64,000 nt of DNA from Parcubacteria group bacterium (GTDB lineage: Bacteria > Patescibacteriota > Minisyncoccia > Phycocordibacterales > Phycocordibacteraceae). Positions 3,729 through 59,380 of this stretch are shown piece by piece. The stretch lies in assembly GCA_028286605.1 (NCBI GenBank), contig JAQBRE010000002.1, positions 399,687 through 463,686 of the forward strand, read 5' to 3'. The notes under the pieces were generated by a model, which saw only the letters and a program-made list of their open reading frames with translations, made no database searches and had not been told where the DNA came from. A program made the translations under genes and the position numbers. The first letter of the stretch is position 1, and every line of letters starts with the position of its first letter.

Positions 3729-6434
3729 ATGCCCCCTTTCAAAAACTTCACCACAAAAGCAAAAGAAGCTATAAAGCGAGCCCACGAGCTCGCTATTGAG
3801 CGTGGGCAGAATCACGTCAGTCCGCTTCACCTTTTAACAGCACTTATCCATCAGGAAGAAAGTCTGGTCTTTTCAGTGCTCGACCGCATGGATATCGATA
3901 CGATGGAACTTTCCGATACGCTGCTCGAATCCCTTGAATCTCCGGACCCCACCTCAGTCCTTTCTCCTTCATTCAACCTGTATCTCACGCCGGAACTCGC
4001 ACAGGCGCTTGAATCGGCAGGGAAGGTCGCTGCACGCATGAATGACTCCTATATAGGAACGGAGCATCTGTTCCTTGCAGTTATTGAGAATCCAGGACCA
4101 GCGGATGATATCCTCACGCGTTTCAAGATAGATGAAGAGACCGTCGAAGCAGTTCTTAAGGAACTCAAGACTTCGAAGGACGGACAGGTTGCCGAACCGA
4201 AGCGGTTCCGCGCGCTTTCCAAATACACGCGCAATCTTACGAAGCTCGCGGCAGACAATGCGCTTGATCCGGTTATCGGCCGTGATCAGGAAATAAATCG
4301 CGTGATTCAGATACTCTCGCGCCGCACGAAGAACAATCCGGTGCTTATCGGCGAAGCAGGCGTGGGTAAGACAGCGATCGCAGAAGGTCTCGCGCTGCGC
4401 CTTTCAACCGGCGAAGTTCCAGAATCCCTGAAGGGCAAGGAACTCCTTTCGCTTGACCTCGGCATGATGATCGCCGGCACGAAGTACCGTGGCGAATTCG
4501 AAGAGCGTATGAAGGCTGTGATGAAGGAAGTAGAGAAGTCCGATGGCAAGGTCATCGTCTTCGTTGATGAGCTGCACACGCTCGTAGGCGCCGGCGCCGC
4601 GGAAGGATCCCTTGATGCGACGAACATGCTTAAGCCGGCGCTCGCACGCGGCGAGATTCGCATGATCGGCGCGACCACGCTTAAGGAATATCAGCAGCAT
4701 ATCGAAAAGGATGCTGCGCTTACGCGCCGCTTCCAGCCGGTATACGTGAATGAACCGAATGAAGAAGACGCTATCGCGATTCTTCGCGGCCTACGCGACA
4801 AGTACGAGCTCTTCCATGGCGTCCGCATCACGGACGGCGCTATCGTTTCCGCTGTGGAGCTTTCTAGTCGTTACATTTCAGACCGTTTCCTTCCAGACAA
4901 AGCTATCGACCTTGTGGACGAAGCCGCTTCCGGCCTTCGCATCGCGCTTGAAAATAAGCCACCGCAGCTTGAAGAGACAGACCGAAAGATCCGCCGCCTT
5001 GAAATCGAACGACAGGCTCTTAAGAAGGATGATGAAACGCTTTCCGAACAGGCTCCGGCGAACACGAAGGAGATTCGCGAGCGCGTGAAGGCTATCGATG
5101 CGGAAATCGCAGATTTCCGCGAGAAGACGGCCGAGCTCGAGCTTAAGTGGAAGAACGAAAAAGAAGTCCTGCAGGACATCCGCGCACTCAAGGCAGAACT
5201 CGATCGCCTGCGTGTCGCTGCTGATAACGCCGAAGCCACTGCAGATCTGGGCACTGCCGCAGAAATCCGCTACGGCCGTATGCCGCACTTGCAGAAGGAA
5301 CTCGAAACAAAGACGAAGCGCCTCAAGACGCTTCAGAAGTCGCGTCGCATCCTGCATGAGGAAGTTACCGAGCATGAAATTGCCGGTGTCGTCTCACGCT
5401 GGACCGGTATCCCGGTTGCAAAGATGATCGAGGAAGAAGCAGCGAAGCTCGCGCGCATGGAACTCGACCTTACGACAGCGGTCATAGGACAGAACGCCGC
5501 GATCAAGATCGTTACGGACGCAGTGAAGCGCTCGCGCGTGGGTATCGCGGACCCGAATCGTCCGATCGGTTCGTTCATGTTCCTTGGCCCGACCGGCGTC
5601 GGAAAGACGGAACTCTCGAAGCGTCTCGCTGAATTCATGTTCAATGATAAGGATGCGCTGGTTCGCGTCGACATGTCTGAATTCATGGAACGCCACTCGG
5701 TCGCTAAGCTCATCGGTGCGCCGCCAGGATATGTGGGCTACGACGAAGCAGGTTCGCTCACCGAACGCATCCGTCATCGCCCGTATTCAGTCGTCCTCTT
5801 CGATGAAATCGAGAAAGCGCATCCTGAAGTATTCAACATCCTTCTGCAGGTTCTCGATTCCGGCCATCTTACCGACGGGAAGGGTCGCAAGGTGAACTTC
5901 AAGAACACCATCATCATCCTTACGTCGAACATCGGCGCGGAATACATGGACCGCATGGCGAACATCGGATTCGGCAGCGCAGAGCACGGCGAAGCCACCG
6001 CGTACGAACAGATGAAGGAGAAGGTCATGGGCTCGCTCAAGGAACAGTTCCGTCCTGAATTCCTGAACCGTCTTGATGACATCATTATCTTCGATCCGCT
6101 TTCCAAGGAAGCGCTCACGGAAATCGTGGAGAGCCAGGTCGTCGAAGTGGTCTCCCGCCTGAACGGCAAGCGCATCACGCTCGCCATTACTCCCGAGGTA
6201 CGTGCATGGCTGGCGGAAAAGGGATACAACCCGCAATACGGCGCTCGTCCGCTTAAGCGCACGATTCAGGACAAGATCCTTACGCCGATCGCGTCGCTTA
6301 TGGTGGGGCAGGGAATCATGGAAGGCGGCACCGTAACGGTATCGCTCAAGAATGGCGAACTGCACTTCGATGTTAAGAAAGGTTTGACGAAGACTCGTCG
6401 TACCAAGGCGCAGGCGGCCGCAACGGCCGCCTAG
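3729..6434 (+). CDS. clpB: ATP-dependent chaperone ClpB
   Basis: 901 aa. Clp_N repeats, two AAA+ modules ([15 protein letters not shown]; [15 protein letters not shown]), a long coiled-coil M-domain between NBD1 and NBD2, and the C-terminal ClpB_D2-small domain. Confidence 0.93.
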
Positions 6435-6470
6435 TTGCCCCAGCCCATTCCATCTGGTACAGTATTTCCA

Positions 6471-6623
6471 ATGTCACAGGTAAATCTAATCAAGGTAAAG
6501 AGCGCTTCCGGGCACGTCCTCTTCACCCGCAAGAACAAGAAGAAGGTGGAGCGCAAGCTCGAACTCAAGAAGTTCGACAAGACCACCCGAAAGCGTGAAA
6601 TCTTCAAGGAAGTTAAGAAATAG
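6471..6623 (+). CDS. rpmG: 50S ribosomal protein L33
   Basis: MSQVNLIKVKSASGHVLFTRKNKKKVERKLELKKFDKTTRKREIFKEVKK matches the L33 signature (Y/FTTxKNKRxxPxKLELKKYDPxxRKHVxFKE). An upstream in-frame ATG at 6435 is also possible. Confidence 0.8.
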   Translation: MSQVNLIKVKSASGHVLFTRKNKKKVERKLELKKFDKTTRKREIFKEVKK

Positions 6624-6625
6624 AA

Positions 6626-6670
6626 CATGAGCAAGAAAAACCGCCTACCCAGGCGGTTTTTCTTGCTCAT
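6626..6670 (+). terminator. Rho-independent terminator after rpmG
   Basis: Perfect 20-bp stem atgagcaagaaaaaccgcct / aggcggtttttcttgctcat with a 4-nt loop and an internal U-run. Confidence 0.75.
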
Positions 6671-6764
6671 AGTATTCTCATAAATATATGTTATAGTGCT
6701 CGCGAGACCGGAAAGTCCGGTTCTTGATCTTCTTTCTTCAATCTGGACCAAAGGGGTACTGGGA

Positions 6765-7421
6765 ATGCACTTTAAAAACCATCTTTTGGGCGCCGCAGCC
6801 GCGGTGGCTCTCATGTCGTTCGCCGTTCCGGCGTTCGCCACGGACTACGTCTTCACCGGCACGTCGATGACCAACCCGGACATCGTCAGTGTCGATGGGG
6901 AAGGTGTCTATATGGCGCCGATGGACTTTCAAGGCGTGCAGTCCATCGAGGCTTGGTGTCTCGATGTCACTCACTTCATCAGCCTCGGCGCTCAAAACCC
7001 GGCGCTGGAGTACAACAAGGAGACGCTCACCACGTCCACGATGTTGAACGGCAACCCGTCGTTCGGCGCGCTGCAGATCGGCGAAATCAGCTATCTGATC
7101 AACATTCTCGCTCCGACGCTGGCTCCTGGTCACGCGTTGAATGAGGTGCAGGGCGCCATCTGGGACATCACTCTCGGCGGCGTTGGCCACGTCACTTCCG
7201 GCGATTCTGGAATCCAAGCGGGCATCGACCACTTCGCCACGCTCGGTCTGACCTCGGGCCGCACTGTCATCGGTCTCGAATCCACCGGAATCACTCCGAA
7301 CGTGCAGGACTTCGGGATGGCCGGCGGCGTGCCTGAACCGGCGGCCTGGGCTCTGATGCTCCTCGGCTTCGGCGGCCTCGGCGCTGCGCTTCGGCACCAG
7401 CGGCGAGCGGCGTTCGCCTAA
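6765..7421 (+). CDS. Secreted PEP-CTERM-anchored protein (exosortase substrate type)
   Basis: N-terminal signal peptide MHFKNHLLGAAAAVALMSFAVPAFA. The C-terminus GGVPEPAAWALMLLGFGGLGAALRHQRRAAFA* is a VPEP motif, a hydrophobic helix and an Arg cluster. It uses GC-rich third codon positions. Confidence 0.75.
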   Translation: MHFKNHLLGAAAAVALMSFAVPAFATDYVFTGTSMTNPDIVSVDGEGVYMAPMDFQGVQSIEAWCLDVTHFISLGAQNPALEYNKETLTTSTMLNGNPSFGALQIGEISYLINILAPTLAPGHALNEVQGAIWDITLGGVGHVTSGDSGIQAGIDHFATLGLTSGRTVIGLESTGITPNVQDFGMAGGVPEPAAWALMLLGFGGLGAALRHQRRAAFA

Positions 7422-7454
7422 CAACGTTCGCTACGCATCTTCGGATGCACACCA

Positions 7455-7492
7455 AGGGCTCCCTTCGACTTCGGTCGTCGGGAGCCTTTTCT
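7455..7492 (+). terminator. Rho-independent terminator after the PEP-CTERM gene
   Basis: Stem ggctccc...gggagcc with a nested cgac-ttcg-gtcg hairpin, followed by ttttctatttcc. Confidence 0.65.
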
Positions 7493-7572
7493 ATTTCCAT
7501 ACTTTCTTTATTATTCTCTCAAGATTCCTTGACCATCAAATTGCTAGAGTTTATCCGGACAAGGAGGTTCTC

Positions 7573-7650
7573 ATGTGGATGATGATTCTGGGATTCAGCA
7601 TGGTTGGAATCATGCTGCGGTATCTAAAGCATAGGAAGCGAGTTTCTTAA
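7573..7650 (+). CDS. Small hydrophobic peptide (25 aa) with a strong Shine-Dalgarno sequence
   Basis: aaggagg lies 7 nt upstream of the ATG. The product MWMMILGFSMVGIMLRYLKHRKRVS is a single TM helix plus a basic tail. It is followed by the hairpin at 7657-7682. Confidence 0.4.
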   Translation: MWMMILGFSMVGIMLRYLKHRKRVS

Positions 7651-7654
7651 TACG

Positions 7655-7688
7655 AAAAGAGGGTCCGGAACGGACCCTCTTTCTTCAT
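7655..7688. terminator. Bidirectional terminator hairpin between the small peptide ORF and the convergent 7702-8799 gene
   Basis: aagagggtccg-gaa-cggaccctctt is a perfect 11-bp stem. It is flanked by A-rich sequence on the left and T-rich sequence on the right. Confidence 0.7.
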
Positions 7689-7701
7689 ATCTTGCTAACT
7701 G

Positions 7702-8799
7702 TTACAGACTCGAAATCTGAGACTCAATGAGCTGTATTGCGCTCAGGATGCTTAGGAACTCGGTCTGTATCTGACTCTTCACTGATGAGTTCGTCGTGCT
7801 CGTTACAGGCGTTGCTGTGTTCGTGGTGCCTACTAATGCGTTAAGAGCAGCACGAGTCGTTGGGCCAACATTGCCGAGCTGTGCAATTTTATGCGCTGCC
7901 TGGAATTTGATAACTGCGGCCTTTGTGGCATCTCCGAAGTGGCCGTTTGCTGTTGCGGTCAGGTCACCTTGTGCAATAAGAACCTGCTGAAGGGTCATCA
8001 CCTGTGGATCATTAGACCCAAGGGCAAGATCCGTGGTGAAAGTAGGATCTGCTGCGGTCGTCTGCGTGGCAGTCGTTCCGGTGGTACCCGCTGCGGTCTG
8101 CACAGCGATAACGACTGACGAAGTAGCGATTCTGCCCGCCGTATCAGCAGCAGTAATGTTTATAAGATGCGTGCCCGCATCGTTCGTTTGCGGCGTCCAG
8201 GAAAATACACCATTACTGCTAATGTTCGTATTCGTAATGCTGCTTGCTTCTGAACTATCGAATACGGTGTAGTTCGGTGCGTCAGGAAAACCGGATGCAA
8301 CTGCGCTCACCGTAACGGTTTGACCAGCATTCACTTTTGAAGAAGGGGAAACCCCACTCAAAGAAAGGGAAATAGGAGAGGTCGATACAGGATTGCTACC
8401 GCTGCTTGAAATGCTTGTGCCGCTTGGCGTAACGGTAAGGGTGTAGTTGGCGGTAGCAGCATTGCCGGAACTGTCAGAAACGACTATGGCAAGGGGATGC
8501 GTGCCCACATCGTTCTGTACCGGCGTCCATGCGAACTGACCCAAAGAATCCAGATCGTACCCGCCAAGACTCCCATTGTGATATCCATCACTCAATACGT
8601 ATTTTGGACTATTGAATCCAGTCGCCGTAACGGTAAACGTAACTTTCGTACCTACGGGGATTGAATTGCCAGGAGAAATGGAGTTAATGTTGATAGTGCC
8701 GGTATTCGCATATGCGCCCGTTGCCGTACCAAGCAAAAGCAATAGCCCGCCAGCATATCCGGCAATACGCACAGCATTCATTTGAAATGATTTGTTCAT
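7702..8799 (-). CDS. Secreted protein with two tandem Ig-like repeat domains and a C-terminal peptidoglycan-binding (PG_binding_1-like) domain
   Basis: Signal peptide MNKSFQMNAVRIAGYAGGLLLLLGTATGAYA. The internal ~100-aa repeat (TGFNSPKYVLSDG...AWTPVQNDVGTHPLAIVVSDSSGNAATANYTLTV and SGFPDAPNYTVFDSS...FSWTPQTNDAGTHLINITAADTAGRIATSSVVIAV) occurs twice. The C-terminus LALGSNDPQVMTLQQVLIAQGDL...GHFGDATKAAVIKFQAAHKI...GPTTRAAL matches the PG-binding helical repeat. A canonical RBS ggagga is present. Confidence 0.75.
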   Translation of the reverse strand: MNKSFQMNAVRIAGYAGGLLLLLGTATGAYANTGTININSISPGNSIPVGTKVTFTVTATGFNSPKYVLSDGYHNGSLGGYDLDSLGQFAWTPVQNDVGTHPLAIVVSDSSGNAATANYTLTVTPSGTSISSSGSNPVSTSPISLSLSGVSPSSKVNAGQTVTVSAVASGFPDAPNYTVFDSSEASSITNTNISSNGVFSWTPQTNDAGTHLINITAADTAGRIATSSVVIAVQTAAGTTGTTATQTTAADPTFTTDLALGSNDPQVMTLQQVLIAQGDLTATANGHFGDATKAAVIKFQAAHKIAQLGNVGPTTRAALNALVGTTNTATPVTSTTNSSVKSQIQTEFLSILSAIQLIESQISSL

Positions 8800-9068
8800 A
8801 GAAAATTATTTAGCCTTTCCTCCATTATATCCTACGCAGAAAACGAAGTACGCGTTGCGTATATATTACTAAGTTGATTCAAATATTTTGAATCCGTGGT
8901 GGCGGGCTCTGACGGAAGATTTTAGAACTATTGATTGGGCGAGGGAGTATCCGTTTCCTACGAGTGCACTACGTGAACTACAAAGTATTTTTGTATAAAA
9001 GAAAACCGCCCACAAGTGTGACCCAATGGGTCAGCTTTCCTAGTGGGCAGTCTCGATCTTGTATAAGG

Positions 9069-9542
9069 TCATTCATTCAATATTTGTCGAAGCTTGTTGC
9101 GAGCTTTTGCTATGCGACGATGCACCTCAGAGAGTCCTATGTTCTCCTCAGAAGCAATCTCTGATGGAGATTTACCTTCGACAGCCTTACGAAGTGTTCG
9201 GGCCCAAGCTTGAGGTAACATCTCAATAGCAAACAGTACCTGGTTGAGCTCAGCAGCGAGGGCTTGGTTTGCTTCGATGTGCTTACCAGGGTCTTGTATT
9301 TTGTGCGAGAGAGATATGCGTATGCTCCTTTTCCGTAGCATGTCGTAAAATCGATGACGCATACTGATTCGCAGTGAGGCTCCCATACTTTCCTCTGAGG
9401 CAAAGTCTGCTCGATATTTAAGCGCCTCACACATTACTTCGTGCAGAAGATCCTCAGCATCGTGATGATTACGCGTTACGCCCCAGGCGTATCTGAAGAG
9501 TGGGCCATAATGACCCATGAGTTTTTGCTCAAACGGGTCCAT
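9069..9542 (-). CDS. ECF-type RNA polymerase sigma factor (sigma-70 family, regions 2 and 4)
   Basis: DAEDLLHEVMCEALKY (region 2.x) and SPSEIASEENIGLSEVHRRIAKARNKLRQ (region 4.2 HTH). 157 aa. Confidence 0.75.
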   Translation of the reverse strand: MDPFEQKLMGHYGPLFRYAWGVTRNHHDAEDLLHEVMCEALKYRADFASEESMGASLRISMRHRFYDMLRKRSIRISLSHKIQDPGKHIEANQALAAELNQVLFAIEMLPQAWARTLRKAVEGKSPSEIASEENIGLSEVHRRIAKARNKLRQILNE

Positions 9543-9710
9543 TTGTTACCTTTCAGGCGTTGCTTGGTTCTGAAATAAGTATGCCAAATAAATAAATTGT
9601 GTCAAATAGGCGGGCTTACGGAGTCTGGAATGGAACTCTATTGAAGAGACAATATTGAAATGGAAGAAGCATTCTGAACAACATTGAAACGAAAATGATA
9701 TAATTAGAAA

Positions 9711-10214
9711 ATGAGCCCCGATGTAGAGAAGGTGAATATCGCTTATATAGATGCTGCAAATCTAGACAGAGCCTTGAAAGATTTAAACTGGAAACTAGAT
9801 TACAAGAAATTTAGAGTCTGGCTTTCTGATAAATATAAAATTGAGCGCGCTTATATTTTCATAGGGTTAATTCCTAAATACAAAGATTTATATACTCATT
9901 TCCAAGAATGCGGATTCACGGTCATCTTCAAGGAGGTGGTGTATCAAGGAGGAGGAATTCCTAAAGGGAACTGCGATACAGATTTAATAATGCAGGCAAT
10001 GGCAGATGCCTATGAAGGAAGCCTTCAAAAGGCACTGATCATTTCCAGTGATGGTGATTACGCCCCGTTAGTTAAGAAATTACAGTCGCGAGAGCAATTC
10101 CTAGCAATACTATCTCCTGCTCCGGCTAAGAAATGTTCGATACTTTTGAAACGAACAGACGCACCCATTGCATATATTAACGATCAACGAGGGCTCCTTG
10201 AGGAGATTAAATAA
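9711..10214 (+). CDS. NYN-domain (LabA-like / PIN-like nuclease) protein
   Basis: VNIAYIDAANLDRA...(D)...LIISSDGDYAPLVKKL follows the NYN/LabA pattern (FIDGxNL ... SGDGDF). The surrounding islet is AT-rich (~35% GC). Confidence 0.65.
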   Translation: MSPDVEKVNIAYIDAANLDRALKDLNWKLDYKKFRVWLSDKYKIERAYIFIGLIPKYKDLYTHFQECGFTVIFKEVVYQGGGIPKGNCDTDLIMQAMADAYEGSLQKALIISSDGDYAPLVKKLQSREQFLAILSPAPAKKCSILLKRTDAPIAYINDQRGLLEEIK

Positions 10215-10384
10215 AAAGGCCCCCGATGCGGACGAGCCGCATAAGGGTCCTTTTCGTGGTGATATCTAGAGTATACTCGAACACCATGAGGATTTCAAGA
10301 AGAGGTGTATAACCCCTGATTTCTAAGATGTGTTTCCTGTGGACGAGATTCGACGATTCCTGACGACAAGCATAATATAAATAT

Positions 10385-10918
10385 ATGACCTACGCACAAG
10401 CCGAGGCGAAATTTAAGAGCATAAAGACTGCTATTGGAAAATGGTTGGGGATCAAACGGGTAAAGAAACAAATTCACGATCAGGCAACTAAGGATGCTTT
10501 TGCGAAATCAGACCCTGATACAAAGATGAAGCTTATCGGACCCCAACTCGAAATCTTTACTTCATCGGTGTCTAGAAAGTCAGATCTTCTTCCAACTATT
10601 GCTACTCTCGTTGCGGCTCTAATAGTTGTTACTACCCTAAATCATGACCTTGTACCTCTTCGACCTACTGAAACCAAGGCAATTTTAAGCCTCTTCTTAA
10701 TCCTTATTCCGATTACTCTTAATTACTACATAAAAGTAATGGAGCATACGGCAAGGGGAGCTGTCGACATAATCGATTCTTATCAGGGATTCAGTACGTT
10801 CGAAAAAATGGGACCAGTCTCGTTTCTTCAGAGTTTAAGTTCCGAGTTTCCAATAATAATTGTTTATATAATTTATGGTGTCGTTGGATTAATTATATTC
10901 AGAATCTGGTACGGATAA
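10385..10918 (+). CDS. Hypothetical membrane protein (AT-rich islet)
   Basis: 177-aa ORF with three or more hydrophobic helices (LLPTIATLVAALIVVTTL; AILSLFLILIPITLNYYI; FPIIIVYIIYGVVGLIIFRIW). Its AT-rich composition matches the neighbouring NYN gene. Confidence 0.5.
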   Translation: MTYAQAEAKFKSIKTAIGKWLGIKRVKKQIHDQATKDAFAKSDPDTKMKLIGPQLEIFTSSVSRKSDLLPTIATLVAALIVVTTLNHDLVPLRPTETKAILSLFLILIPITLNYYIKVMEHTARGAVDIIDSYQGFSTFEKMGPVSFLQSLSSEFPIIIVYIIYGVVGLIIFRIWYG

Positions 10919-10924
10919 ATAAAT

Positions 10925-10998
10925 TGGCGGGCCCACGAGGAATCGAACCTCGGCCGACGGTTTTGGAGACCGACGTTCTACCATTAAACTATAGGCCC
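10925..10998 (-). tRNA. tRNA-Trp (anticodon CCA), with CCA encoded
   Basis: The reverse complement GGGCCTATAGTTTAATGGTAGAACGTCGGTCTCCAAAACCGTCGGCCGAGGTTCGATTCCTCGTGGGCCCGCCA folds as a cloverleaf: 7-bp acceptor stem, T-arm CGAGG-TTCGATT-CCTCG, and anticodon loop CTCCAAA. Confidence 0.88.
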
Positions 10999-11079
10999 TA
11001 TAGCGCCACGATAGCAGACGCAGACCCTGTGGGCAAAGGAACTATCCAGCCAGCTATGCCGTACAATGGAGGTATCGTT

Positions 11080-12081
11080 ATGGGCACTCGCGCTACTCTT
11101 ATATCCTCCGGCATCCTCGCGCTCGCTGCGATGCCGCTTTCTGCATTCGCTGCCACGACGAACTTCTTCGGCCCGATCATTCCGCAGGGAGGGAACTGTC
11201 TTTGTGCAACAAGCGCAATGGACTGGGGCTGCGTAATTGCGGTTGTCCAAAACGTACTGAACCTATTGGTCTCGCTTGGCGTTATTGCCGTGGTGTTCTT
11301 CTTTGCCTGGGCAGGATTCACGCTCGTAGCAAGCGGTGGGAGTCCTGCAGCGCTCACGAAGGCGAAGAATCGTATGCTTAATGCCGTACTCGGTCTCGTG
11401 CTTATCCTTGGTGCGTGGACGATTATCGATACGATCATGAAGGTCCTCTACAATCCTTCTGCAGCATTTACTGGCGGCACTTTCGGTCCATGGGAAAGCG
11501 TTCTTAATGCGAATAACGGCGCGTATTGTTTGAAGCCTAATACTTCTCCAGGAATTCTTACGAATGGAAGTATCATTGGGACACTTATTAATGCAGTGAA
11601 TCCCGGCACAGCAAACTCTTCATCGAATCCTGGTAGTTGTAATGTTGCTTCTGGCGGACCATGTACCGTTTCTAATTTGACGCCGGTATTTGGTAGTAAT
11701 GCAAGTCAGGCAGCGCAAATCTGTTCTGCAGAGAGTGGTAATAACCCGCAGAGCACGAGTAAGTCTGATAAAACTTCGGACGGTAATTCTTATTCTGTTG
11801 GTTTGTTCCAAATAAATCTGACAAACTCCTTTAATCAAAGCGTTGATGGACAGAATTGCAGTGCCGCATTCTCAAAGAAATGCCAAGGTAGCGCCGTTGT
11901 GCAATCGGGATCATCAGCAGGTTCATGTAGTGCAACTGTTATAAACCCACAGCTGTATAGTGATTGCGTTGCCGCCGCTCAGAACCCAACCACAAACATG
12001 CAGGCGGCTCAGGCAATCTACAGTCGGAACGGTAATTGGAATCCATGGTCAACCTCTAATACGTGCGGTCTTCATAGTTAG
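11080..12081 (+). CDS. Secreted fusion protein: TrbC/VirB2-like pilin domain, Cys/Ser/Asn-rich linker, and VirB1-like lytic transglycosylase (SLT) domain
   Basis: RBS ggaggt. Signal peptide MGTRATLISSGILALAAMPLSAFA. Two hydrophobic helices separated by a short basic loop (LVSLGVIAVVFFFAWAGFTLVASGG-SPAALTKAKNR-MLNAVLGLVLILGAWTII) match VirB2/TrbC pilin topology. The C-terminus CSAESGNNPQ...DGNSYSVGLFQINLTNS...NPTTNMQAAQAIYSRNGNWNPW matches the VirB1/SLT catalytic signature (ES..NP...GS.D.GLMQIN...Y..G.W..W). The ORF-track start at 10924 would overlap tRNA-Trp and is rejected. Confidence 0.7.
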   Translation: MGTRATLISSGILALAAMPLSAFAATTNFFGPIIPQGGNCLCATSAMDWGCVIAVVQNVLNLLVSLGVIAVVFFFAWAGFTLVASGGSPAALTKAKNRMLNAVLGLVLILGAWTIIDTIMKVLYNPSAAFTGGTFGPWESVLNANNGAYCLKPNTSPGILTNGSIIGTLINAVNPGTANSSSNPGSCNVASGGPCTVSNLTPVFGSNASQAAQICSAESGNNPQSTSKSDKTSDGNSYSVGLFQINLTNSFNQSVDGQNCSAAFSKKCQGSAVVQSGSSAGSCSATVINPQLYSDCVAAAQNPTTNMQAAQAIYSRNGNWNPWSTSNTCGLHS

Positions 12082-15044: not shown

Positions 15045-15431
15045 ATGGAAGATTTTGATTCATGGAACAAGTCCAAAAAACTGGATTACAGTAACTCTAA
15101 ACCGGAAGTATTTCCAAAAGCAGGAGAAGTTTGGTTAACCGTTCTTGGAAAGAACATTGGATACGAACAGAATGGAGTGACCGATAGATTTATTAGACCT
15201 TGTCTCATTGTTAAGAAATTTAATAATGGGATGTTTTGGGTGGTTCCACTCTCAAGTAAGCAAAAGAAATTTAATTTCTATTTTAATTTTCTTGATCCAA
15301 ATGGGTTACCTGTGTCTGCGATACTTGCCCAATTAAGAATGATAAGTAGCAAGCGCTTTTCAAAGCGTTTGTATAGTATGGATATCAAAACGTACCTTCG
15401 AATTAAGGGCAGACTAAAATCGTTTTTATAA
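15045..15431 (+). CDS. PemK/MazF-family toxin-like protein (mRNA interferase fold), apparently solitary
   Basis: FPKAGEVWLTVLGKNIGYEQNGVTDRFIRPCLIVKK...FWVVPLSSK follows the PemK/MazF pattern (GE[IV]W..D...G.EQ.G.RP.L[IV]V......VVPLTS). The islet is AT-rich. No antitoxin-sized ORF lies upstream. Confidence 0.6.
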   Translation: MEDFDSWNKSKKLDYSNSKPEVFPKAGEVWLTVLGKNIGYEQNGVTDRFIRPCLIVKKFNNGMFWVVPLSSKQKKFNFYFNFLDPNGLPVSAILAQLRMISSKRFSKRLYSMDIKTYLRIKGRLKSFL

Positions 15432-26975: not shown

Positions 26976-27713
26976 ATGAGTAAAGATCGAAAACAAGTAG
27001 CGATACGAATGCGTAAAGAAGGTAAAACCTATAGTGAAATTTGTAATGAACTTACTATTGCCAAATCAACTCTCTCACTCTGGTTACGAGCTGTGGAATT
27101 ATCCAAACCTCAAGAGCAGAGAATAACTGAAAAGCGTACCCAAGCAGCTGCACGAGGAGGAAAAGCACGCCACGATACTCGCATAAAGGAGATCGAGTAT
27201 TCAAATATCGCTGGGATAGAAAGTATCGGCAAGCTAACCCCGCGCGAATTGTGGCTTATCGGTATTGCCCTTCATTGGGCCGAGGGTTCAAAACAGAATG
27301 AACGCTCACTAAGTGCAGGCATCGTGTTTAGTAATTCCGACTATCGAATGGTCCAGGTCTTTCTGTTGTGGTTAGGTCTATTTAAAGTACTCGATGAGGA
27401 CATTATCTTTGAATTATATGTACACGCCAGTAGAAAAGAGGAAATAGAATTATTCAAAGGGTGGTGGTCCGAAAGACTTGCAGTTCCGATTGAAAATCTT
27501 TCCCGTATATATTTAAAGCAAGGAAATCCTCAGACAAGACGCACGAATACAGAAGACTTGTATCATGGCCTCATCCGCATTAAAGTTAAAAAGAGCACCG
27601 CGATGAATCGCAATATACAGGGCCTGATTCATGGCATTGCAACTCAATTGGGGAGTGGTGTAATTGGTAACACGTCTGCCTTTGAAGCAGAAGACTCTAG
27701 GATCGTACCCTAG
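26976..27713 (+). CDS. HTH-domain protein with a LAGLIDADG-like motif (possible free-standing homing-endonuclease-like gene) in an AT-rich insert
   Basis: N-terminal HTH (RMRKEGKTYSEICNELTIAKSTLSLWLR). The downstream ELWLIGIALHWAEGSK resembles the LAGLIDADG / LxGxxxG(D/E)GS motif. Local GC is about 40%. Confidence 0.45.
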   Translation: MSKDRKQVAIRMRKEGKTYSEICNELTIAKSTLSLWLRAVELSKPQEQRITEKRTQAAARGGKARHDTRIKEIEYSNIAGIESIGKLTPRELWLIGIALHWAEGSKQNERSLSAGIVFSNSDYRMVQVFLLWLGLFKVLDEDIIFELYVHASRKEEIELFKGWWSERLAVPIENLSRIYLKQGNPQTRRTNTEDLYHGLIRIKVKKSTAMNRNIQGLIHGIATQLGSGVIGNTSAFEAEDSRIVP

Positions 27714-27765
27714 CTCCCCAGCATCTATAACCAGCATTCGATCTCCAGTCTCCCAGCAATAAAAT

Positions 27766-41438: not shown

Positions 41439-42470
41439 ATGACTGTTGATGAAACGGACTTCGCTGTCCAGCTCGAGACTGCGCTTGAAACTCAGAACAA
41501 GCTCGTTGCGCTTATCGGCACTTATCTTAAACCTATCGGAACAGGCAAGGTTCGGTACCTTTTCGATCTCCCACAGCATCCTGACCTTATGGCTGTCTTC
41601 GTAAGTGACAACTGGAGCGCCCGCGATTTCGTCTTCGGCTTCGTTATTCCTGAAAAGGGTAAGTATCTGAACATTGCGACTATCGCGATGAAGCGCTATC
41701 TCCGCAACAAGGAAATCGAAACCGATTTAGTCGCATACGCGCGCTACATCGACGAATATCTTCCGCCCGGGCTCCGGGGTAACCGCGAACTCTGGAACAG
41801 GATGACGATCGTACGTAAGTGCGAAATGATTCCGGTAGAGGTCGTTCTGCGCAACAATCTTTTCGGGAGCGCCTGGAAGGATTACAACAACCCCAAGCTG
41901 GGTCGCGTAGTGTGCGGTCAGTTGCTTAGCGAAGGACTACCTCTTTTCGCTGAGCTTTCACCACCTTTCCAGTCGCCAACGACAAAGGCGAAGACGGGTC
42001 ACGATCTGGCCATGACCAAGCAGGCTGTTGACGAAGAATATCCTGGACTTCTTTCCGAGGGTGTTTATATTCTCGAGTCTCTCAACGAGATTCTTGAAGA
42101 AGATTCACTTGGACGATGTATCGATATCAAGTTCGAGCTTGGGCGAAATCCAGTTACAGGGATATATGTGCTCTGTGACGAAATAAGCCCTGATTCGAGC
42201 AGGCTTTGCCGACTCTCTGACTATCTCGCTCTAGAAAAAGGTGAGGTTCCTGAATTCCTTGATAAGGAATTCGGCCGCGCCTGGGCTGACGCGCTAGGTA
42301 TCGACAAACTCGATCCCGCTTCCGAAACGGACAAGGAACTGGTCCGTTCTTGGAGGCCAGACGAACAGTTCGTTCAAGAGTTCATGCGGCGGTATGCGGT
42401 GGCATTCTGGATTCTGTCGCGCGGACATACGTTGAACGAATATCGAAACTCGATGATGGCGATGAGCTAA
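41439..42470 (+). CDS. SAICAR synthetase (PurC)-family protein; orphan, long form
   Basis: GTGKVRYLFDL, IPVEVVLRNNLFGSAWKDY and CIDIKFELGRNPVTGIYVLCDEISPDSSRLCRL align with the PurC motifs GKAK.VY, VP[VL]E.VVR.Y..GS and VD.KLEFG...GEI.L.DE.SPD.SR.W. No other pur genes are nearby. Confidence 0.7.
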   Translation: MTVDETDFAVQLETALETQNKLVALIGTYLKPIGTGKVRYLFDLPQHPDLMAVFVSDNWSARDFVFGFVIPEKGKYLNIATIAMKRYLRNKEIETDLVAYARYIDEYLPPGLRGNRELWNRMTIVRKCEMIPVEVVLRNNLFGSAWKDYNNPKLGRVVCGQLLSEGLPLFAELSPPFQSPTTKAKTGHDLAMTKQAVDEEYPGLLSEGVYILESLNEILEEDSLGRCIDIKFELGRNPVTGIYVLCDEISPDSSRLCRLSDYLALEKGEVPEFLDKEFGRAWADALGIDKLDPASETDKELVRSWRPDEQFVQEFMRRYAVAFWILSRGHTLNEYRNSMMAMS

Positions 42471-42497
42471 CGATTCTTCAAGGAATTTCTATGACTG

Positions 42498-42531
42498 CAA
42501 GGGCGCGCCGGATGGCGCGCCCTTTTTCTTA
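42498..42531 (+). terminator. Rho-independent terminator after the purC-like gene
   Basis: gggcgcgcc-ggat-ggcgcgccc + tttttctt. Confidence 0.7.
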
Positions 42532-42580
42532 TCCTCCCGTGTACGTATGTATATGCGCATCATCCTTTATACTGAACGTA

Positions 42581-45343
42581 ATGGCACTTGAAGGACCAGC
42601 GCGACCGATAACGTCGCCGGAAGAAGAACTCGCGTACCTGCGTGCGCAGGTACAGGCGAAAGAGCTTGAGCTTTCGGAGTTGCGCGTGGAAAAGCCGCGC
42701 GAGACGGTCGCGCACGAGCGCATCGTGGATCATCGCAGCACGGAAGCTGCGCAGGTACTCGATCCACGCTATCAGATACAGCCGGCAGAGGCAGAAAGCC
42801 TTGCGCTTAACCTTGAACCGCAGAGTGATGACGAAACGATGCAGGAGCTTCGCCGCATTATCGAGACGAAGGGTATCCATAATGCGTTCAGCGTGCTGGA
42901 AAAGCTCAAGAATCCGCACCTTGAGGATGATTTCCACCGATTCCTCGTGCAGTATCTGATTGCGGGTATGCCGATACAAGGCATGAACGAGAAGCAGCCT
43001 GAATGGAAGGGTCTGCACATGACGCTGTATGAGATCTCGCTTCCGGAAGCGAATACTGATGAAGAATCTCGCCGTAAAACGTTGAAAGAGCTTATCTCTT
43101 CGATGGAGCAGTTCTATTCCGGCATGCTCGGCACAGAACATGCCACGACGGGCGAGCCTGCGCACTTCACCCTTGAGCTCGCGGTGCCAGTGAACAAGGC
43201 GCACCTGATGTTCTATGCAGCGATACCGAATTCGAAATGCGACTTGTTCGAGAAGCAGTTGCTCGCCATATTCCCGAATGCGCATATCGCACCGCAGCCG
43301 AACGATTACAACGTCTTCGTTGATGGCGGCGAATCGTTCGGTTCCGTTGCTGCGCTTGGTCGCCCGGCGATGCTCGCGCTCAAGGATTACGGTGATTTCG
43401 ATTATGACCCTATCAACTCGATACTGAATGCCTTCGCGAAGATTGCGCCAGAGAATGAAGGTGCTTCATTTCAGATTACGATCGCGCCGCAAGGGGAGCG
43501 TTTCGTGAAGCACTATCGCAAGGTATTGAATGCGCTTCGCACCGGGCAGGAACGACAGAAGGCATTCAATCTTCCTGAAACCGCATTTGGTGAAGTGGCA
43601 CGTGATATCACGAGCACATTGTTCGGTGGCAGTTCAAGTAAGACGAAGGAGGACGAAGAGAAAGAACGCGCACGCCAGACCGAAGCGAATAAATCTGATA
43701 TCGAGCACGTAGAGCGAAAGCTCGCATCACAGATAGTCGCGACCAATATGCGTCTTGTGGTTTCTTCCAAGGACCCAGGCCGTGCAGAACAGATACTTGG
43801 CGAGCTTGAGTCTGCATTCCATCAGTTCGAGAATCCGACCGGCAACCGTATAGAGTGGCGGCATGTATCGCGCGGCACGCTGCGAACTCTTTTCCATGAC
43901 TTCACCTTCCGTACGTTCGAGAAGGCGACTGAAGTCGCACTTTCTCTCCGTGAACTCACAGCGATATTCCACTTCCCGCCGAACGGCATCGCCTCTTCGC
44001 CGCACCTCAAGCAGTCGAGGTTCACTGCAGCGGCAGCTCCTTTGGAGCTGCCGCACGACGGCATCCAGCTCGGCACCAACGAGTTCCGGGGTCAAAAGAC
44101 TGATGTATTTCTTTCACCTGAAGACCGTCTTCGTCACCTGTATGTGATCGGGCAGACCGGTACCGGTAAGACATCGTTCATGAAAACTCTGATTGATCAG
44201 GATATCAAAGCAGGTAATGGGGTCTGCTTCATCGACCCGCACGGTAACGACATCCTTGATGTGCTGGCAAGCGTTCCTCCGGAACGCTATGAAGACGTCA
44301 TCTACTTCGATCCGGCATACATAGATCGACCATTCGGTCTCAATCTTCTTGAATACGATCCCGCATTCCCTGAACAGAAGACGTTCATCGTGAACGAGCT
44401 GCTCGCTATATTCCGTCGCTTGTATGGCGATGTGCCTGAATCGATGGGTCCTGCCTTCGAGCAGTACTTCCGTAACGCAACATTGCTCGTGATGGAAGAT
44501 CCAGAATCCGGTTCAACGCTTATGGACATCGGCCGCGTGCTTTCGAACAAAGCATTCCGAGACCTGAAGCTTTCTAAGAGCAACAACCCAATCGTGAATC
44601 AGTTCTGGAATGAGATAGCAACGCAGGCAGACGGCGAAGCGTCACTTGCGAACATCGTCCCATATATCACGAACAAGTTCGATGATTTTACTTCGAACGA
44701 TTTCATGCGTCCTATCATTGGTCAGCAGGAATCATCCTTCAAATTCCGCGACATCATGGATAAGCGAAAGATCCTGCTCGTTAATCTTTCGAAAGGACGA
44801 CTCGGTGAACGTAATGCGAACCTGCTCGGGCTCATTATGGTGGGCAAGATATTCATGGCAGCGCTCTCACGTGCAGATGATCCGCGTGGCGTCTTCCCGC
44901 CGTTCTACCTCTATATAGACGAGTTCCAGAACATAACGACCGACTCCATTCCGAGCATCCTTTCAGAGGCTCGTAAATACAAGCTATCTCTTACGATCGC
45001 GCACCAGTTCCTTGCGCAGGTCGATGAGAAGATCCGTGACGCAGTCTTCGGCAACGTCGGCTCCATGAGCGTGTTCCGTGTTGGGCAGGAAGACGGCGAA
45101 GTGTTCGCGAAACAATTCGCACCGACATTCAGCGCGCCCGATTTCATCAACATCGAGAATTACAACGCATACGTGCGTATGCTCGCGCATGGCGTGCCGC
45201 AGAAGCCCTTCAACATTCAGACGCTTCCGCCGCCGCAAGGAAATCCGAATCAGATCGATGACTTGCGCGAACTTTCATACCTCACCTACGGTCGTGACCG
45301 TGCTACAGTTGAAGCATCTATCAGAGCGAGATATCTTTCGTAA
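42581..45343 (+). CDS. Large ATPase of the FtsK/HerA/VirB4/VirD4 (T4SS) superfamily with a ~480-aa N-terminal domain of unknown function
   Basis: C-terminal half: HLYVIGQTGTGKTSFMKTLI (Walker A), CFIDPHGND, ILLVNLSKG, YLYIDEFQN (Walker B) and ARKYKLSLTIAHQFLAQV (the R-K-x-G-x-L-x-TQ arginine-finger box typical of TraD/TrwB/VirB4/HerA). The N-terminal half has no TM helix and no recognisable motif. The ORF-track start at 42350 lies inside purC and is rejected. Confidence 0.75.
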   Translation: MALEGPARPITSPEEELAYLRAQVQAKELELSELRVEKPRETVAHERIVDHRSTEAAQVLDPRYQIQPAEAESLALNLEPQSDDETMQELRRIIETKGIHNAFSVLEKLKNPHLEDDFHRFLVQYLIAGMPIQGMNEKQPEWKGLHMTLYEISLPEANTDEESRRKTLKELISSMEQFYSGMLGTEHATTGEPAHFTLELAVPVNKAHLMFYAAIPNSKCDLFEKQLLAIFPNAHIAPQPNDYNVFVDGGESFGSVAALGRPAMLALKDYGDFDYDPINSILNAFAKIAPENEGASFQITIAPQGERFVKHYRKVLNALRTGQERQKAFNLPETAFGEVARDITSTLFGGSSSKTKEDEEKERARQTEANKSDIEHVERKLASQIVATNMRLVVSSKDPGRAEQILGELESAFHQFENPTGNRIEWRHVSRGTLRTLFHDFTFRTFEKATEVALSLRELTAIFHFPPNGIASSPHLKQSRFTAAAAPLELPHDGIQLGTNEFRGQKTDVFLSPEDRLRHLYVIGQTGTGKTSFMKTLIDQDIKAGNGVCFIDPHGNDILDVLASVPPERYEDVIYFDPAYIDRPFGLNLLEYDPAFPEQKTFIVNELLAIFRRLYGDVPESMGPAFEQYFRNATLLVMEDPESGSTLMDIGRVLSNKAFRDLKLSKSNNPIVNQFWNEIATQADGEASLANIVPYITNKFDDFTSNDFMRPIIGQQESSFKFRDIMDKRKILLVNLSKGRLGERNANLLGLIMVGKIFMAALSRADDPRGVFPPFYLYIDEFQNITTDSIPSILSEARKYKLSLTIAHQFLAQVDEKIRDAVFGNVGSMSVFRVGQEDGEVFAKQFAPTFSAPDFINIENYNAYVRMLAHGVPQKPFNIQTLPPPQGNPNQIDDLRELSYLTYGRDRATVEASIRARYLS

Positions 45344-45346
45344 CTT

Positions 45347-47740
45347 ATGGCATCTAAAGAACGTCCAACGCTGCATCTCAAGAAAACTCCAGACTTCCCG
45401 CCGAAGCCGCCGGTTAATAACGAAGAATCATTTAACTCTTCTGATGAACTTCGCCGCGCAAATAATATCCTCAATGATTTGCGTCAGGATATTTTTGTTG
45501 CAGGTAGCGATACAAAAAAAGTAGAAAAAGAATGGAAAAACGCCATTAAAACGCACAACTCTATAGTTCGCTCCGTTAAAGAATATCAAGCAACGACTAA
45601 TCCAGAAGAAAAAAACAAATTAGAAGAATCTATAAAAAAATCAATTGCTTCCCTCGCATATGAACGGGAGGTTGAAATTCGCGAAGCATATCAGGGTGGT
45701 GACTTCATACCCTTAAATCCTCATGACCCTCAAACCGCGCTTGAGAATAGAGAAGAATATCGAACGTTTATCAAAGAAAAGAACGAAGTAAATACTTCTG
45801 AAGAGCCTGAGGATGTACCATCACCTGAAATTGAGGCTGAGGTGCACGAAGAGATTACAGCACCTGAAGAGATAGTTGAAGCAGATGAAAATGATACTGT
45901 TGTACCTTTTCCAACACAGCCAAGAGTTCGTGTACGAGAAAATGTGCAGCCATACACCCCTGCGATACAGGCAGAAACTGTCATTGAAACTGAGAAGGAA
46001 AGCGATGAGCCGATCGTGATGCTTAATAAAACGCTAAATAAAATTGCCGGCCTAAAGGAAAAGAAAGTAAAGAAAGAAAAGCCACGAAAGGTATTCAAAT
46101 CAGTGAGCGAAGGCGGCACTGTATACAAGGGTCATCAGTTCGACAGTCTTGATGGTGAATCGGGAACAGTCGCTCCAAAGGCAGAAACAGCACCTGAACC
46201 CGTAATCATTCGAGGTGCTCCTGAAACGCGCGCTGAATATATGAGCGTGCTTCGTCGTAACGTAGCGCAGATTGATCATGATATCGAAGCCAAGCGAAGA
46301 ATTATCGAATCGCTCGAAAAAACAGCGTTACAACATACGGGCATCCGAGAAACTGAGAGCGCACGTGCAAGTGTTGGAAAGAACGAAGAGGAACGTTTTA
46401 TGGCACGCAACCACCGAGTTGAGGCAAGCGTAGATGATCAGATCAGACTAACAGAAAAAGAACTAACCGCGCTTTATGATGAGAAGCAAAACAGCATAAA
46501 GACTGAATCTGCTTCGAATGAAAATTCTTCTGCAGAAGAGGCGATCGAAGCGCCGCTTCCTGTCGTTGAAGTTCCAATTGAAGCTCAGGACTGGACCACG
46601 CACGGACCGAATATAAAGAGCCTTAGTGCGGAGCGTGAAGCCCGTATCAAGGAAAAGAATACGAAAAAGAAGCAGAATATGTTCCGTACCGCTCTTGCCG
46701 GCCTCATGGCGTTTGCGGGTTTTGGTGAGCCAGAAAAACTTGCCGCTGCCACTCATGCGCCCACGCCGGTCGCATCACGTGCTTTTAACGCGTCCGTACA
46801 GAATGACCCCGCGTTGCATCACCTTCAGGAAGCGGCACGCGTTGCTGCTGCAGAGAAGTCGCACCCAAGCACTGTTGCAACCATCGAAAAGAATGGCGAA
46901 GGTGCCGATGCGCTGATCGGAAGCCTGAAGGCGAAGCTCAAGGTTCAGTATCCCGAAGGAACTCGTCCGCCGAATGCAGTGGTGAAGCAAATAATCGAGA
47001 TGCATCCGCACATGCTTACCGAGAAACTTAAGGGCATGCACGGAAAGAAAAGCGTACCGATGCACATGAAAGATTCGTTGGAAGTGAATGCGAAAGGTCA
47101 GTTGGTTTTCCATAGTGCCACGCACCACGCAGATCATCCTCAAGTGCTTATGGAATCTACAATCGCGGGTGTGAAATGGACTGGTACTTTCCATTGGCCG
47201 CATGTGCCAGCTGCACACAAGGAACATAAAGCTCCTGCAGCTCCTCATCATGCAGAAACAGTAACGCCGGAAGCGCCTACGGCCCCTCATACTGAATCTG
47301 CACCAGGAACTCCTGCTCCATCACATGAGCAAACTCCAGCAGCCCCCGCTCCTGATGAGGTTCCTTCACCCGTTGCTCCAGTTGCACACCCTGAAACAAA
47401 ACCTACACAAGGAGCCAAGGCAGAGAATATACACGGTCTGTTTGTTGATAAGGAAACACCTCATATATATCAAGATGCGTATGGTGCTTTGATAGCCTTC
47501 GGCGGTTCGAGCGAGCAGCAGCTCAAGATGATTAATGATTTTTTTGAGTCGCCAAGTAATTGGGGTAAGACAATACTTGCAATGACCTCTAAGCCCGACC
47601 CTCTGACTGGCCAGCCAGATCTGAGTTCATTCAGTGTCGATGAATCGGGAAAGACCAGACTGGTCCCCGTGATGACCGACGAACAAAACACAATGATTCT
47701 GCCACCTACGGAGGATGACCTCGTTAAGAAAGTACAATAG
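45347..47740 (+). CDS. Large hypothetical protein (797 aa): acidic, coiled-coil and His/Pro/Ala-rich low complexity. Co-operonic with the T4SS-like ATPase.
   Basis: Starts 4 nt after the ATPase stop. The 5' third is AT-rich. It contains HxxHxxxH and PAAPxP runs, with no TM segments. Confidence 0.55.
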   Translation: MASKERPTLHLKKTPDFPPKPPVNNEESFNSSDELRRANNILNDLRQDIFVAGSDTKKVEKEWKNAIKTHNSIVRSVKEYQATTNPEEKNKLEESIKKSIASLAYEREVEIREAYQGGDFIPLNPHDPQTALENREEYRTFIKEKNEVNTSEEPEDVPSPEIEAEVHEEITAPEEIVEADENDTVVPFPTQPRVRVRENVQPYTPAIQAETVIETEKESDEPIVMLNKTLNKIAGLKEKKVKKEKPRKVFKSVSEGGTVYKGHQFDSLDGESGTVAPKAETAPEPVIIRGAPETRAEYMSVLRRNVAQIDHDIEAKRRIIESLEKTALQHTGIRETESARASVGKNEEERFMARNHRVEASVDDQIRLTEKELTALYDEKQNSIKTESASNENSSAEEAIEAPLPVVEVPIEAQDWTTHGPNIKSLSAEREARIKEKNTKKKQNMFRTALAGLMAFAGFGEPEKLAAATHAPTPVASRAFNASVQNDPALHHLQEAARVAAAEKSHPSTVATIEKNGEGADALIGSLKAKLKVQYPEGTRPPNAVVKQIIEMHPHMLTEKLKGMHGKKSVPMHMKDSLEVNAKGQLVFHSATHHADHPQVLMESTIAGVKWTGTFHWPHVPAAHKEHKAPAAPHHAETVTPEAPTAPHTESAPGTPAPSHEQTPAAPAPDEVPSPVAPVAHPETKPTQGAKAENIHGLFVDKETPHIYQDAYGALIAFGGSSEQQLKMINDFFESPSNWGKTILAMTSKPDPLTGQPDLSSFSVDESGKTRLVPVMTDEQNTMILPPTEDDLVKKVQ

Positions 47741-59344: not shown

Positions 59345-59380
59345 ATAAACCATCCTCTTCGGGGGATGGTTTATTTATTT
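59345..59380. terminator. Bidirectional terminator after the uvrC-like gene and the convergent 59371-59835 gene. The region may also mark the 3' end of a small RNA (59220-59345).
   Basis: aaaccatcc-tcttcggg-ggatggttt + tttatttc. Upstream lie ttgact (-35-like) and the palindrome atacgttt-tc-aaacgtat. Confidence 0.55.

Follow-up and report, generated by a model that had tools for sequence, protein, structure and literature searches.

We examined a 64,000-nucleotide stretch of DNA from a Parcubacteria group bacterium (contig JAQBRE010000002.1, positions 399,687 to 463,686; hereafter, the window) and in it a gene at 6765..7421 that probably encodes a small covalent adhesin: an exported protein of 218 residues made up of a signal peptide, a compact body that we assign by fold and motifs to the thioester domains (TEDs), and a PEPxxWA-CTERM sorting tail. 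Judged by its sequence, the host genome is that of a Kaiserbacteria-like member of the Parcubacteria, a group in the candidate phyla radiation (CPR). The 80 best relatives of the window's ClpB (3729-6434) are 78-92% identical to it and come from species-representative genomes that appear to be Patescibacteria-type metagenome-assembled genomes (their titles vary among Parcubacteria, Paceibacteria, Kaiserbacteria, Patescibacteria and Saccharibacteria, and one reads Bacillota), with Parcubacteria bacterium C7867-007 and -008 heading the list. The gene sits in a variable islet between rpmG and tRNA-Trp. Its surroundings comprise clpB, rpmG, a gene for a PG_binding_1/Ig protein, a sigma factor gene, a NYN gene, tRNA-Trp, a type IV secretion system (T4SS) pilin/SLT gene and miaA. 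The parts of the gene are as follows.

6765..7421, + strand: coding sequence, 218 aa, with signal peptide, thioester domain and PEPxxWA-CTERM tail; ATG at 6765, TAA at 7419-7421.
6765..6839, + strand: predicted Sec-type signal peptide, residues 1-25, MHFKNHLLGAAAAVALMSFAVPAFA, followed by TD; hydrophobic core and A-x-A site, as read from the sequence.
6840..7328, + strand: minimal thioester domain by fold and motifs, residues 26-188; codon of Cys65 at 6957-6959, of Gln129 (VQGAIW) at 7149-7151 and of Gln181 at 7305-7307.
7329..7418, + strand: PEPxxWA-CTERM sorting/anchor domain, residues 189-218, with VPEPAAWA, a transmembrane helix and RHQRR; matched by NF035944 and PF07589.

A small exported protein with a predicted thioester domain

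The body of the protein was modeled with AlphaFold2 on an 18-sequence alignment, giving a mean predicted local distance difference test score (pLDDT) of 85.3, with a core above 93, and a predicted template modeling score (pTM) of 0.76. When this model was compared with the PDB using Foldseek, the top 26 matches were all thioester domains, the first 16 of them at a probability of 1.00. The motifs point the same way. Three motifs characterize TEDs: [YFL]C-Phi-zeta, which lies on a strand and holds the thioester Cys; TQxx-Phi-W, in the central helix; and Phi-Q-zeta-Phi-Phi, in a C-terminal strand, which holds the thioester Gln (Walden et al. 2015, PMC4450167). In the modeled protein, WC65LD ends the strand 61-65, VQ129GAIW133 lies in the helix 123-136, and VQ181DFG stands beside the strand 183-186, in agreement with the C, T and Q motifs both in their order and in their strand or helix context (PMC4450167); in some family members the residue before the thioester Cys is Trp in place of Y, F or L. 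Only six residues of the body, C65, D67, Y83, Q129, W133 and Q181, are invariant in the 18-sequence alignment, and Cys65 is the sole Cys of the mature protein. The predicted thioester thus joins Cys65 to Gln181. Gln129, in VQGAIW, was considered as the thioester Gln and set aside, since the Gln of the helix motif is not reactive (PMC4450167) and the invariant Gln181 fits the Q motif.

The family defined by residues 26-188 is very small: a search of 1.84 billion proteins gave 16 representatives at E <= 1e-3, and a profile search gave 32 proteins. A scan of metagenome contigs for the family returned 281 pattern matches, none of which was confirmed. All members are 190-260 aa long, and most bear a PEP-CTERM tail. 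Two homologues, P0010 (26.0 bits) and P0004 (22.6 bits), exceed the Pfam TED gathering score of 22, with matches that begin at the Cys motif, and a third, P0132, reaches 20.8 bits against that score; altogether, Pfam TED is matched by 4 of the 18 family members. The predicted signal peptide, as read by eye, has no lipobox Cys, and at the other end of the domain Gln181 is separated from VPEP by a linker of only 8 residues, with no stalk.

A PEPxxWA-CTERM tail conserved within the lineage

The C-terminus of the protein, GGVPEPAAWALMLLGFGGLGAALRHQRRAAFA, has the tripartite layout of a sorting signal, read from the sequence as VPEP, the segment AAWALMLLGFGGLGAAL and RHQRR, and occurs together with the N-terminal signal peptide MHFKNHLLGAAAAVALMSFAVPAFA. 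An earlier note on this DNA had called it a PEP-CTERM tail, and three family models uphold that call above their curated cutoffs, all over residues 189-214 of 218: TIGR02595 (PEP-CTERM; 18.7 bits against a cutoff of 16), PF07589 (28.6 bits against 20.7) and, with an E value of 4.6e-11, NF035944 (PEPxxWA-CTERM; 42.4 bits against 35). On these matches the tail is a PEP-CTERM signal, more precisely of the PEPxxWA variant. On NF035944, seven of the remaining eight CPR copies reach 37.8-52.2, so that with the protein studied here 8 of 9 lie above its cutoff. The nine PEPxxWA genes, which come from five CPR genomes, all retain P-E-P, W-A, three Gly and the first Arg, yet the codons of these invariant tail residues vary freely at their third positions, and the four positional orthologues do likewise. 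This combination of fixed residues and varying third positions marks purifying selection on the sorting motif within the CPR lineage, and conservation of the motif argues for a partner that recognizes the tail.

The earlier note had also stated that neither an exosortase nor extracellular polysaccharide (EPS) genes occur in the window, and this agrees with what we found: no exosortase or EPS gene was seen in the 64 kb, though not every open reading frame (ORF) was run against hidden Markov models. Only two window ORFs have at least five hydrophobic segments, and these are DUF1295 and VIT1; a fusion of T4SS pilin and SLT_3 and a histidine kinase make up the remaining membrane proteins of the window. 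Among the window ORFs scanned, no glycosyltransferase or Wza/Wzc-type gene was seen. PEP tails were not found elsewhere in 1.37 Mb of related CPR DNA. In the literature searched, we found nothing linking an exosortase or PEP-CTERM to Patescibacteria, and co-mentions of exosortase and CPR only in an unrelated virus paper. The CPR envelope is presumed to lack an outer membrane. A sorting signal of Gram-negative type is odd here because the host is a CPR/Parcubacteria genome; the earlier note had recognized neither this host nor the thioester domain in the body of the protein. We put the chance that this genome encodes an exosortase-family enzyme at roughly even.

Synteny, composition and origin of the gene

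The same gene with the same neighbors (L33 upstream, the PG_binding_1 gene downstream) is present, identical, in two independent assemblies (JGI and Logan), and the junction of the gene with clpB-rpmG recurs in related genomes from ENA, JGI and GenBank (GTDB) assemblies. The window shares with three CPR genomes (L003, L088 and L091) a gene order that runs from Aminotran_5, a 250-aa protein, ClpB, L33 and the TED gene to tRNA-Trp, T4SS pilin, MiaA, ParB, RelA/SpoT and TopA. Identities to the window's proteins at these loci are as follows.

L003 (P0002): TED protein 61%, ClpB 95.6%, pilin/SLT protein 54%.
L088 (P0169/P0003): TED protein 52%, ClpB 92.8% (partial ClpB).
L091 (P0124): TED protein 38%, ClpB 84.0%, pilin/SLT protein 39%.

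The TED proteins diverge in the same order as ClpB and at a rate like that of the pilin/SLT fusion, another surface gene, which agrees with vertical descent with the fast evolution of a surface protein and not with a recent pickup. The islet also holds further genes of this type: a second PEPxxWA gene is DUF642/FxDxF-like in L003 and L088 and a different one in L091, and a fourth related genome, L028, carries two non-TED PEPxxWA genes, one of the Npun_F0296 family of 'exosortase-dependent surface protein'. A cassette gene matches NF050191, a family of the same description, at 46.7 bits. When the DUF642-like second gene was used as a query for the donor lineage, only four CPR-type proteins were found. 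In the window, the place of the intact second PEP gene of L003, L088 and L091 is taken by a remnant.

7525..7650, + strand: decayed 3' remnant of a second PEPxxWA-CTERM gene, ending in ...YPDKEVLMWMMILGFSMVGIMLRYLKHRKRVS and a stop codon; NF035944 22.8 bits, E 6.5e-5, below the cutoff.

The match of the remnant covers profile positions 9-22 of NF035944 only, the PEP motif having been lost. The remnant has an RBS-like AAGGAGG of its own and an ATG at 7573.

The composition of the TED gene sets it apart from its surroundings. Compared with the 49 window ORFs of at least 150 aa, its GC content at third codon positions (GC3) is 0.784 against a mean of 0.554 (standard deviation 0.096; z 2.39) and ranks first of the 49, and its overall GC is 0.62 against 0.52 for the window. 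The GC3 enrichment over neighboring genes reported in the earlier note is therefore real. From it the note had taken a hint of horizontal acquisition, of which one part holds: a foreign origin is plausible, in view of the PEPxxWA tail and of the closest named relatives of both tail and body, which belong to Phenylobacterium. A recent, isolated pickup finds no support, given the positional orthologues that follow clpB-rpmG in three related genomes, 61, 52 and 38% identical in the order of their ClpB (95.6, 92.8 and 84.0%). TED-gene GC3 lies at 0.68-0.79 in all backgrounds: it is higher than its surroundings in the window and L091, and level with them in L003 and L088, where it equals the GC3 of ClpB.

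As to the source of the gene, all six organism-named matches of one sequence search are from Phenylobacterium, and most of them cover the tail only; P0004 is 33% identical over about 90% of the length. The Phenylobacterium contig JBBCKJ010074282.1 (L084) carries at 10001-11678 tandem TED-PEPxxWA paralogues, 45% identical to one another, that lie downstream of a two-component system, with a TonB-dependent receptor gene nearby, a typical diderm context, and another family member adjoins genes for TonB and outer membrane proteins. In a rough neighbor-joining tree, without support values, the CPR sequences form one group that adjoins the Phenylobacterium group. We infer an old transfer from a Caulobacterales-like alphaproteobacterium into the CPR clade, in that presumed direction, followed by vertical descent, fast evolution and frequent loss. 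No mobile carrier was found in viral contigs or plasmids (tblastn).

Several compositional features of the region can be recorded alongside. The ClpB genes of close CPR relatives, whose proteins are 92-96% identical, range in GC3 from 0.42 (L005) and 0.46 (L004) through 0.64 (window) to 0.79 (L003) and 0.87 (L088, partial), a striking compositional spread. Between the PEP genes and tRNA-Trp, a low-GC block (0.42-0.48; window 7700-10920) that is absent from L003 contains a PG_binding_1 plus Ig-like surface protein (7702-8799, - strand), an ECF-like sigma factor (9069-9542, - strand), a NYN-domain protein (9711-10214) and a membrane protein of 177 aa; the block has the look of an insertion of its own into the same tRNA-adjacent islet. 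The second-highest GC3 of the window, 0.73, belongs to a 222-aa lipoprotein-like ORF at 48423-49091 (- strand; signal peptide ...LTAC; no Pfam match), possibly another acquired surface protein. At the opposite end of the scale, ORFs with a GC3 of 0.31-0.38 (15045-15431, 26976-27713, 59371-59835 and 61471-62403; the genome averages 0.55), one of them an HTH_23 protein abutting tRNA-Gln (27649-27722), probably mark small islands of DNA that is foreign or mobile.

The transcription unit

The gene forms a unit of its own, with the following elements around the coding sequence.

6626..6671, + strand: hairpin with a 20-bp stem, the intrinsic terminator of rpmG (L33), which bounds the unit on its upstream side.
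6689..6699, + strand: extended -10 promoter-like box TGTTATAGTGC (TGn + TATAGT), the sole exact copy in the 64-kb window.
6706..6722, + strand: hairpin GACCGGA-AAG-TCCGGTT, folding energy z -0.16, not exceptional.
7435..7489, + strand: intrinsic terminator of the gene, made up of two hairpins (7435-7448 and 7454-7489) with a U-rich run behind them, -31.2 kcal/mol.

Translation is taken to begin at ATG 6765, which has a ribosome-binding site (AAGGGG) 8 nt upstream; the GTG at 6696 given as the start in the ORF list was rejected, since it falls within the -10-like box and ATG 6765 has the ribosome-binding site. In the five CPR PEPxxWA genes whose upstream regions were compared, nine of the 11 positions of the box do not vary, and a hairpin follows it in the window and at both sites in L003 (about 9925 and 10728) and in L028 (about 12935 and 13795). 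The box presumably acts as a promoter, and the hairpin would lie at the mRNA's 5' end or close to it. Because the box precedes every CPR PEPxxWA gene compared and yet is single in the 64-kb window, box and hairpin together suggest a common regulatory module of the PEPxxWA cassette.

The two flanking elements singled out in the earlier note proved unequal. The strong downstream terminator stands up well, with an energy (z -5.63) that none of 200 shuffles reached. The upstream hairpin is present at the position given, but its energy is ordinary; in relatives, a hairpin of different sequence occupies the same place, and with only its position conserved we do not regard it as a special element. 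An Rfam scan of 6400-7800 gave nothing beyond hairpin noise at the rpmG terminator.

Comparison with known thioester and sorting systems

With the class I TEDs of Gram-positive adhesins (CpTIE-TED, 5a0g; FNE, 5dcq; SfbI-TED, 5a0l; Cpa, 4c0z/2xi9), the protein shares fold and motifs at an identity of only 8-14%. Domains of this kind serve Gram-positive pathogens in covalent bonding to their targets. The spacing from Cys to Gln is 116 residues, against 129 in CpTIE. Whereas those adhesins have isopeptide or ester stalks and an LPXTG/sortase anchor, the present protein has neither, and its single domain of about 160 aa sits directly on the PEP-CTERM tail; lacking both CnaB-like repeats and LPXTG, it was not filed with the TIE or fibrillar TED adhesins. 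The host range differs as well: in a survey published in 2015, TEDs occurred 'exclusively in Gram-positive bacteria' (PMC4450167), while here the host is a CPR bacterium and other family members are alphaproteobacterial.

The closest likeness in architecture is with the Phenylobacterium PEPxxWA proteins (P0004 and its tandem paralogue, L084), which have the same arrangement of signal peptide, TED and PEPxxWA tail, similar size and the same tandem pairing. They differ in their diderm genome, in being flanked by a TonB-dependent receptor and a two-component system, and in insertions of 20-40 aa relative to the CPR proteins, and are presumably served by an exosortase of their own. The PEP-CTERM/exosortase system in general (TIGR02595 with EpsH/Xrt, for example in the floc-forming proteins of Zoogloea) offers the same tripartite C-terminal signal on a small secreted protein with a variable body. 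The window differs from it in that no exosortase, EPS locus or outer membrane genes were found there, including the neighboring EPS biosynthesis and export genes that define a PEP-CTERM/EPS locus, and in having one or two substrates per locus. Exosortase-family tails can be processed in monoderm envelopes, as in the archaeosortase/PGF-CTERM system, where sorting in cells without an outer membrane has reportedly been described by Haft and colleagues in 2012 and in work on Haloferax ArtA. That system uses a PGF motif, not PEP, and other enzymes, and no such enzyme was seen here.

A further parallel is TIE(pLS20) of the Bacillus subtilis conjugative plasmid pLS20, in which a TED is encoded with a monoderm-type T4SS (PMC8092201); the gene studied here lies a few kb from the T4SS pilin/SLT gene, and the window has a VirD4-like coupling protein. 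TIE(pLS20), at 778 aa, has a class II TED and CnaB stalk domains, which the present protein lacks, and the adjacency to T4SS genes may be coincidental, since pilin genes are also present in relatives without the TED gene. The T4SS-related genes themselves are a T4SS_pilin + SLT_3 lysozyme fusion of monoderm type at 10999-12081, directly after tRNA-Trp, where most relatives have paralogous pilin genes, and, at 42350-47740, a VirD4/TraG-like coupling protein (997 aa) followed by a 797-aa protein with a GC3 of 0.40 and no Pfam match.

Proposed function and competing explanations

We consider it probable that the gene encodes a small surface protein acting as a covalent adhesin, anchored either in the membrane or by an exosortase, with a stalk-less TED on a PEPxxWA tail, and descended from an old alphaproteobacterial transfer. 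The protein would be exported via Sec and its signal peptide cleaved after AFA; the Cys65-Gln181 thioester would form autocatalytically, with the helix motif VQGAIW packing against it, and the C-terminal helix and Arg cluster would hold the protein in the cytoplasmic membrane. If the genome encodes an exosortase-family enzyme, cleavage at PEP would pass the protein on to the outer surface. A primary amine on a target surface, such as a Lys side chain, would then attack the thioester to give an intermolecular isopeptide bond, and with it covalent adhesion, by the chemistry through which SfbI binds Lys100 of fibrinogen (PMC4450167). For an episymbiotic CPR cell the obvious use would be attachment to a host; TIE(pLS20) is an example of a TED that, alongside a T4SS, attaches one bacterium to another (PMC8092201).

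Several observations weigh against this proposal. L004 and L005 (ClpB 92%), the nearest of the reference genomes, lack the gene, as do all 80 GTDB ClpB loci, which makes it dispensable and often lost. No exosortase-like polytopic ORF was seen in the window or in the DNA flanking the gene in four related genomes, which extended to at most 10 kb on either side and less at contig ends. The protein has no direct match to Pfam TED (PF08341, E <= 1) and gained no sequence match in PDB profile searches, so that the TED assignment draws on fold, motifs and homologues; the Cys65-Gln181 contact, likewise, is a prediction. The donor proposal draws on few named sequences and on a tree that was not bootstrapped. 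The weak point lies in the reach of the domain: should the tail be a plain anchor, a TED without a stalk would lie beneath the wall or S-layer, where contact with another cell is scarcely feasible.

A bolder version of the adhesin proposal holds that this Parcubacteria clade keeps a fast-evolving, alphaproteobacterial-type cassette of exosortase substrates; that the stalk-less TED acts as a covalent 'harpoon' onto the host cell; that Caulobacterales-like ancestry points to the lineage of that host; and that the strictly conserved PEPxxWA tails imply either an undescribed exosortase-family system in a CPR envelope that has no outer membrane or a conserved role of PEP-CTERM that needs no exosortase. 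Taken as a whole, we think this unlikely.

Much turns on how the tail is used. At a chance we would place slightly below even, it belongs to a routine PEP-CTERM/exosortase system whose enzyme, and perhaps more substrates, lie beyond the 64 kb, the absence from the window being a sampling effect; this account concerns the tail only and is compatible with a TED adhesin. The window is only part of the genome, a recognizing enzyme would explain why P-E-P and W-A are invariant across the nine genes and five CPR genomes despite body identities of 38-61%, and other cassette genes fall in typical 'exosortase-dependent surface protein' families (NF050191, 46.7 bits). The account sits less well with the lack of exosortase-like polytopic ORFs in the window or within the flanking DNA, at most 10 kb on either side, of the five loci, given that small dedicated Xrt systems usually keep the enzyme beside its substrate, or with the lack of other PEP tails in the 1.37 Mb of related CPR DNA and of any exosortase-Patescibacteria link in the literature searched. 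It is also possible, although we lean against it, that the tail works independently of any exosortase as a plain C-terminal transmembrane anchor in a monoderm-type cell, so that the TED would stay near the membrane and, instead of reaching another cell, may capture amines such as polyamines or become linked to peptides in the wall of its own cell. The very short linker from Gln181 to the tail, the failure to see an exosortase near any copy, and the reactivity of TEDs with small amines such as methylamine (PMC4450167) all fit such an anchor, but it leaves the strict conservation of P-E-P and W-A unexplained, and known TEDs are shown on stalks that hold them away from the cell (PMC4450167, PMC8092201).

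Other explanations question the gene or its chemistry. A TED-like fold that forms no thioester, serving non-covalent binding or a structural role at the surface on a retained scaffold, would agree with the missing direct profile match and with a domain smaller than the crystallized TEDs; it strikes us as quite unlikely, in that the Cys and Gln, the only fully conserved residues of true TEDs, are invariant here along with the helix motif, and little else would account for a single invariant Cys in an exported protein. A further reading, linked to the earlier note, is that of a PEP-CTERM orphan, acquired recently and either without function or in decay for want of a sorting enzyme. The highest GC3 in the window, the variable locus adjoining tRNA-Trp, the decay of the neighboring second PEP gene to a remnant and the absence of the gene from the closest reference genomes can all be told this way. 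We nonetheless judge it improbable: the ORF is intact and has its own promoter-like box, ribosome-binding site and terminator, all catalytic and sorting motif residues are invariant, same-locus orthologues occur in three genomes with divergence that tracks ClpB, and the GC3 of the gene equals that of ClpB in L003 and L088. Finally, a composition unlike the neighbors and a tail type typical of Alphaproteobacteria might betray an assembly or binning artefact, an alphaproteobacterial fragment joined chimerically into a CPR contig. The identical gene and neighbors in the JGI and Logan assemblies, the repeated junction of the gene with clpB-rpmG in ENA, JGI and GenBank (GTDB) assemblies of relatives, and the promoter-like box common to the CPR copies make this hardly credible, and independent assemblies that share the junctions rule it out as far as sequence can decide.

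Implications for CPR attachment and protein sorting

No protein that joins a TED to a PEP-CTERM tail was found in the literature searched, and the NCBI name of the Phenylobacterium homologue refers to the tail only. The literature searched on CPR attachment yielded no mention of thioester domains, and in those parts of it available to us, type IV pili and T4SS are the sole machines implicated in host recognition by CPR/Patescibacteria. A conserved, secreted protein with a predicted TED would thus be a concrete and testable candidate for host attachment in CPR bacteria, and its probable alphaproteobacterial ancestry suggests where the host might be sought. TEDs, described as Gram-positive and LPXTG-anchored, would be extended to a PEP-CTERM anchor, to Alphaproteobacteria and to CPR. 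For the PEP-CTERM field, the conserved tail would mean either that exosortases work in CPR envelopes or that the signal is kept under selection without one.

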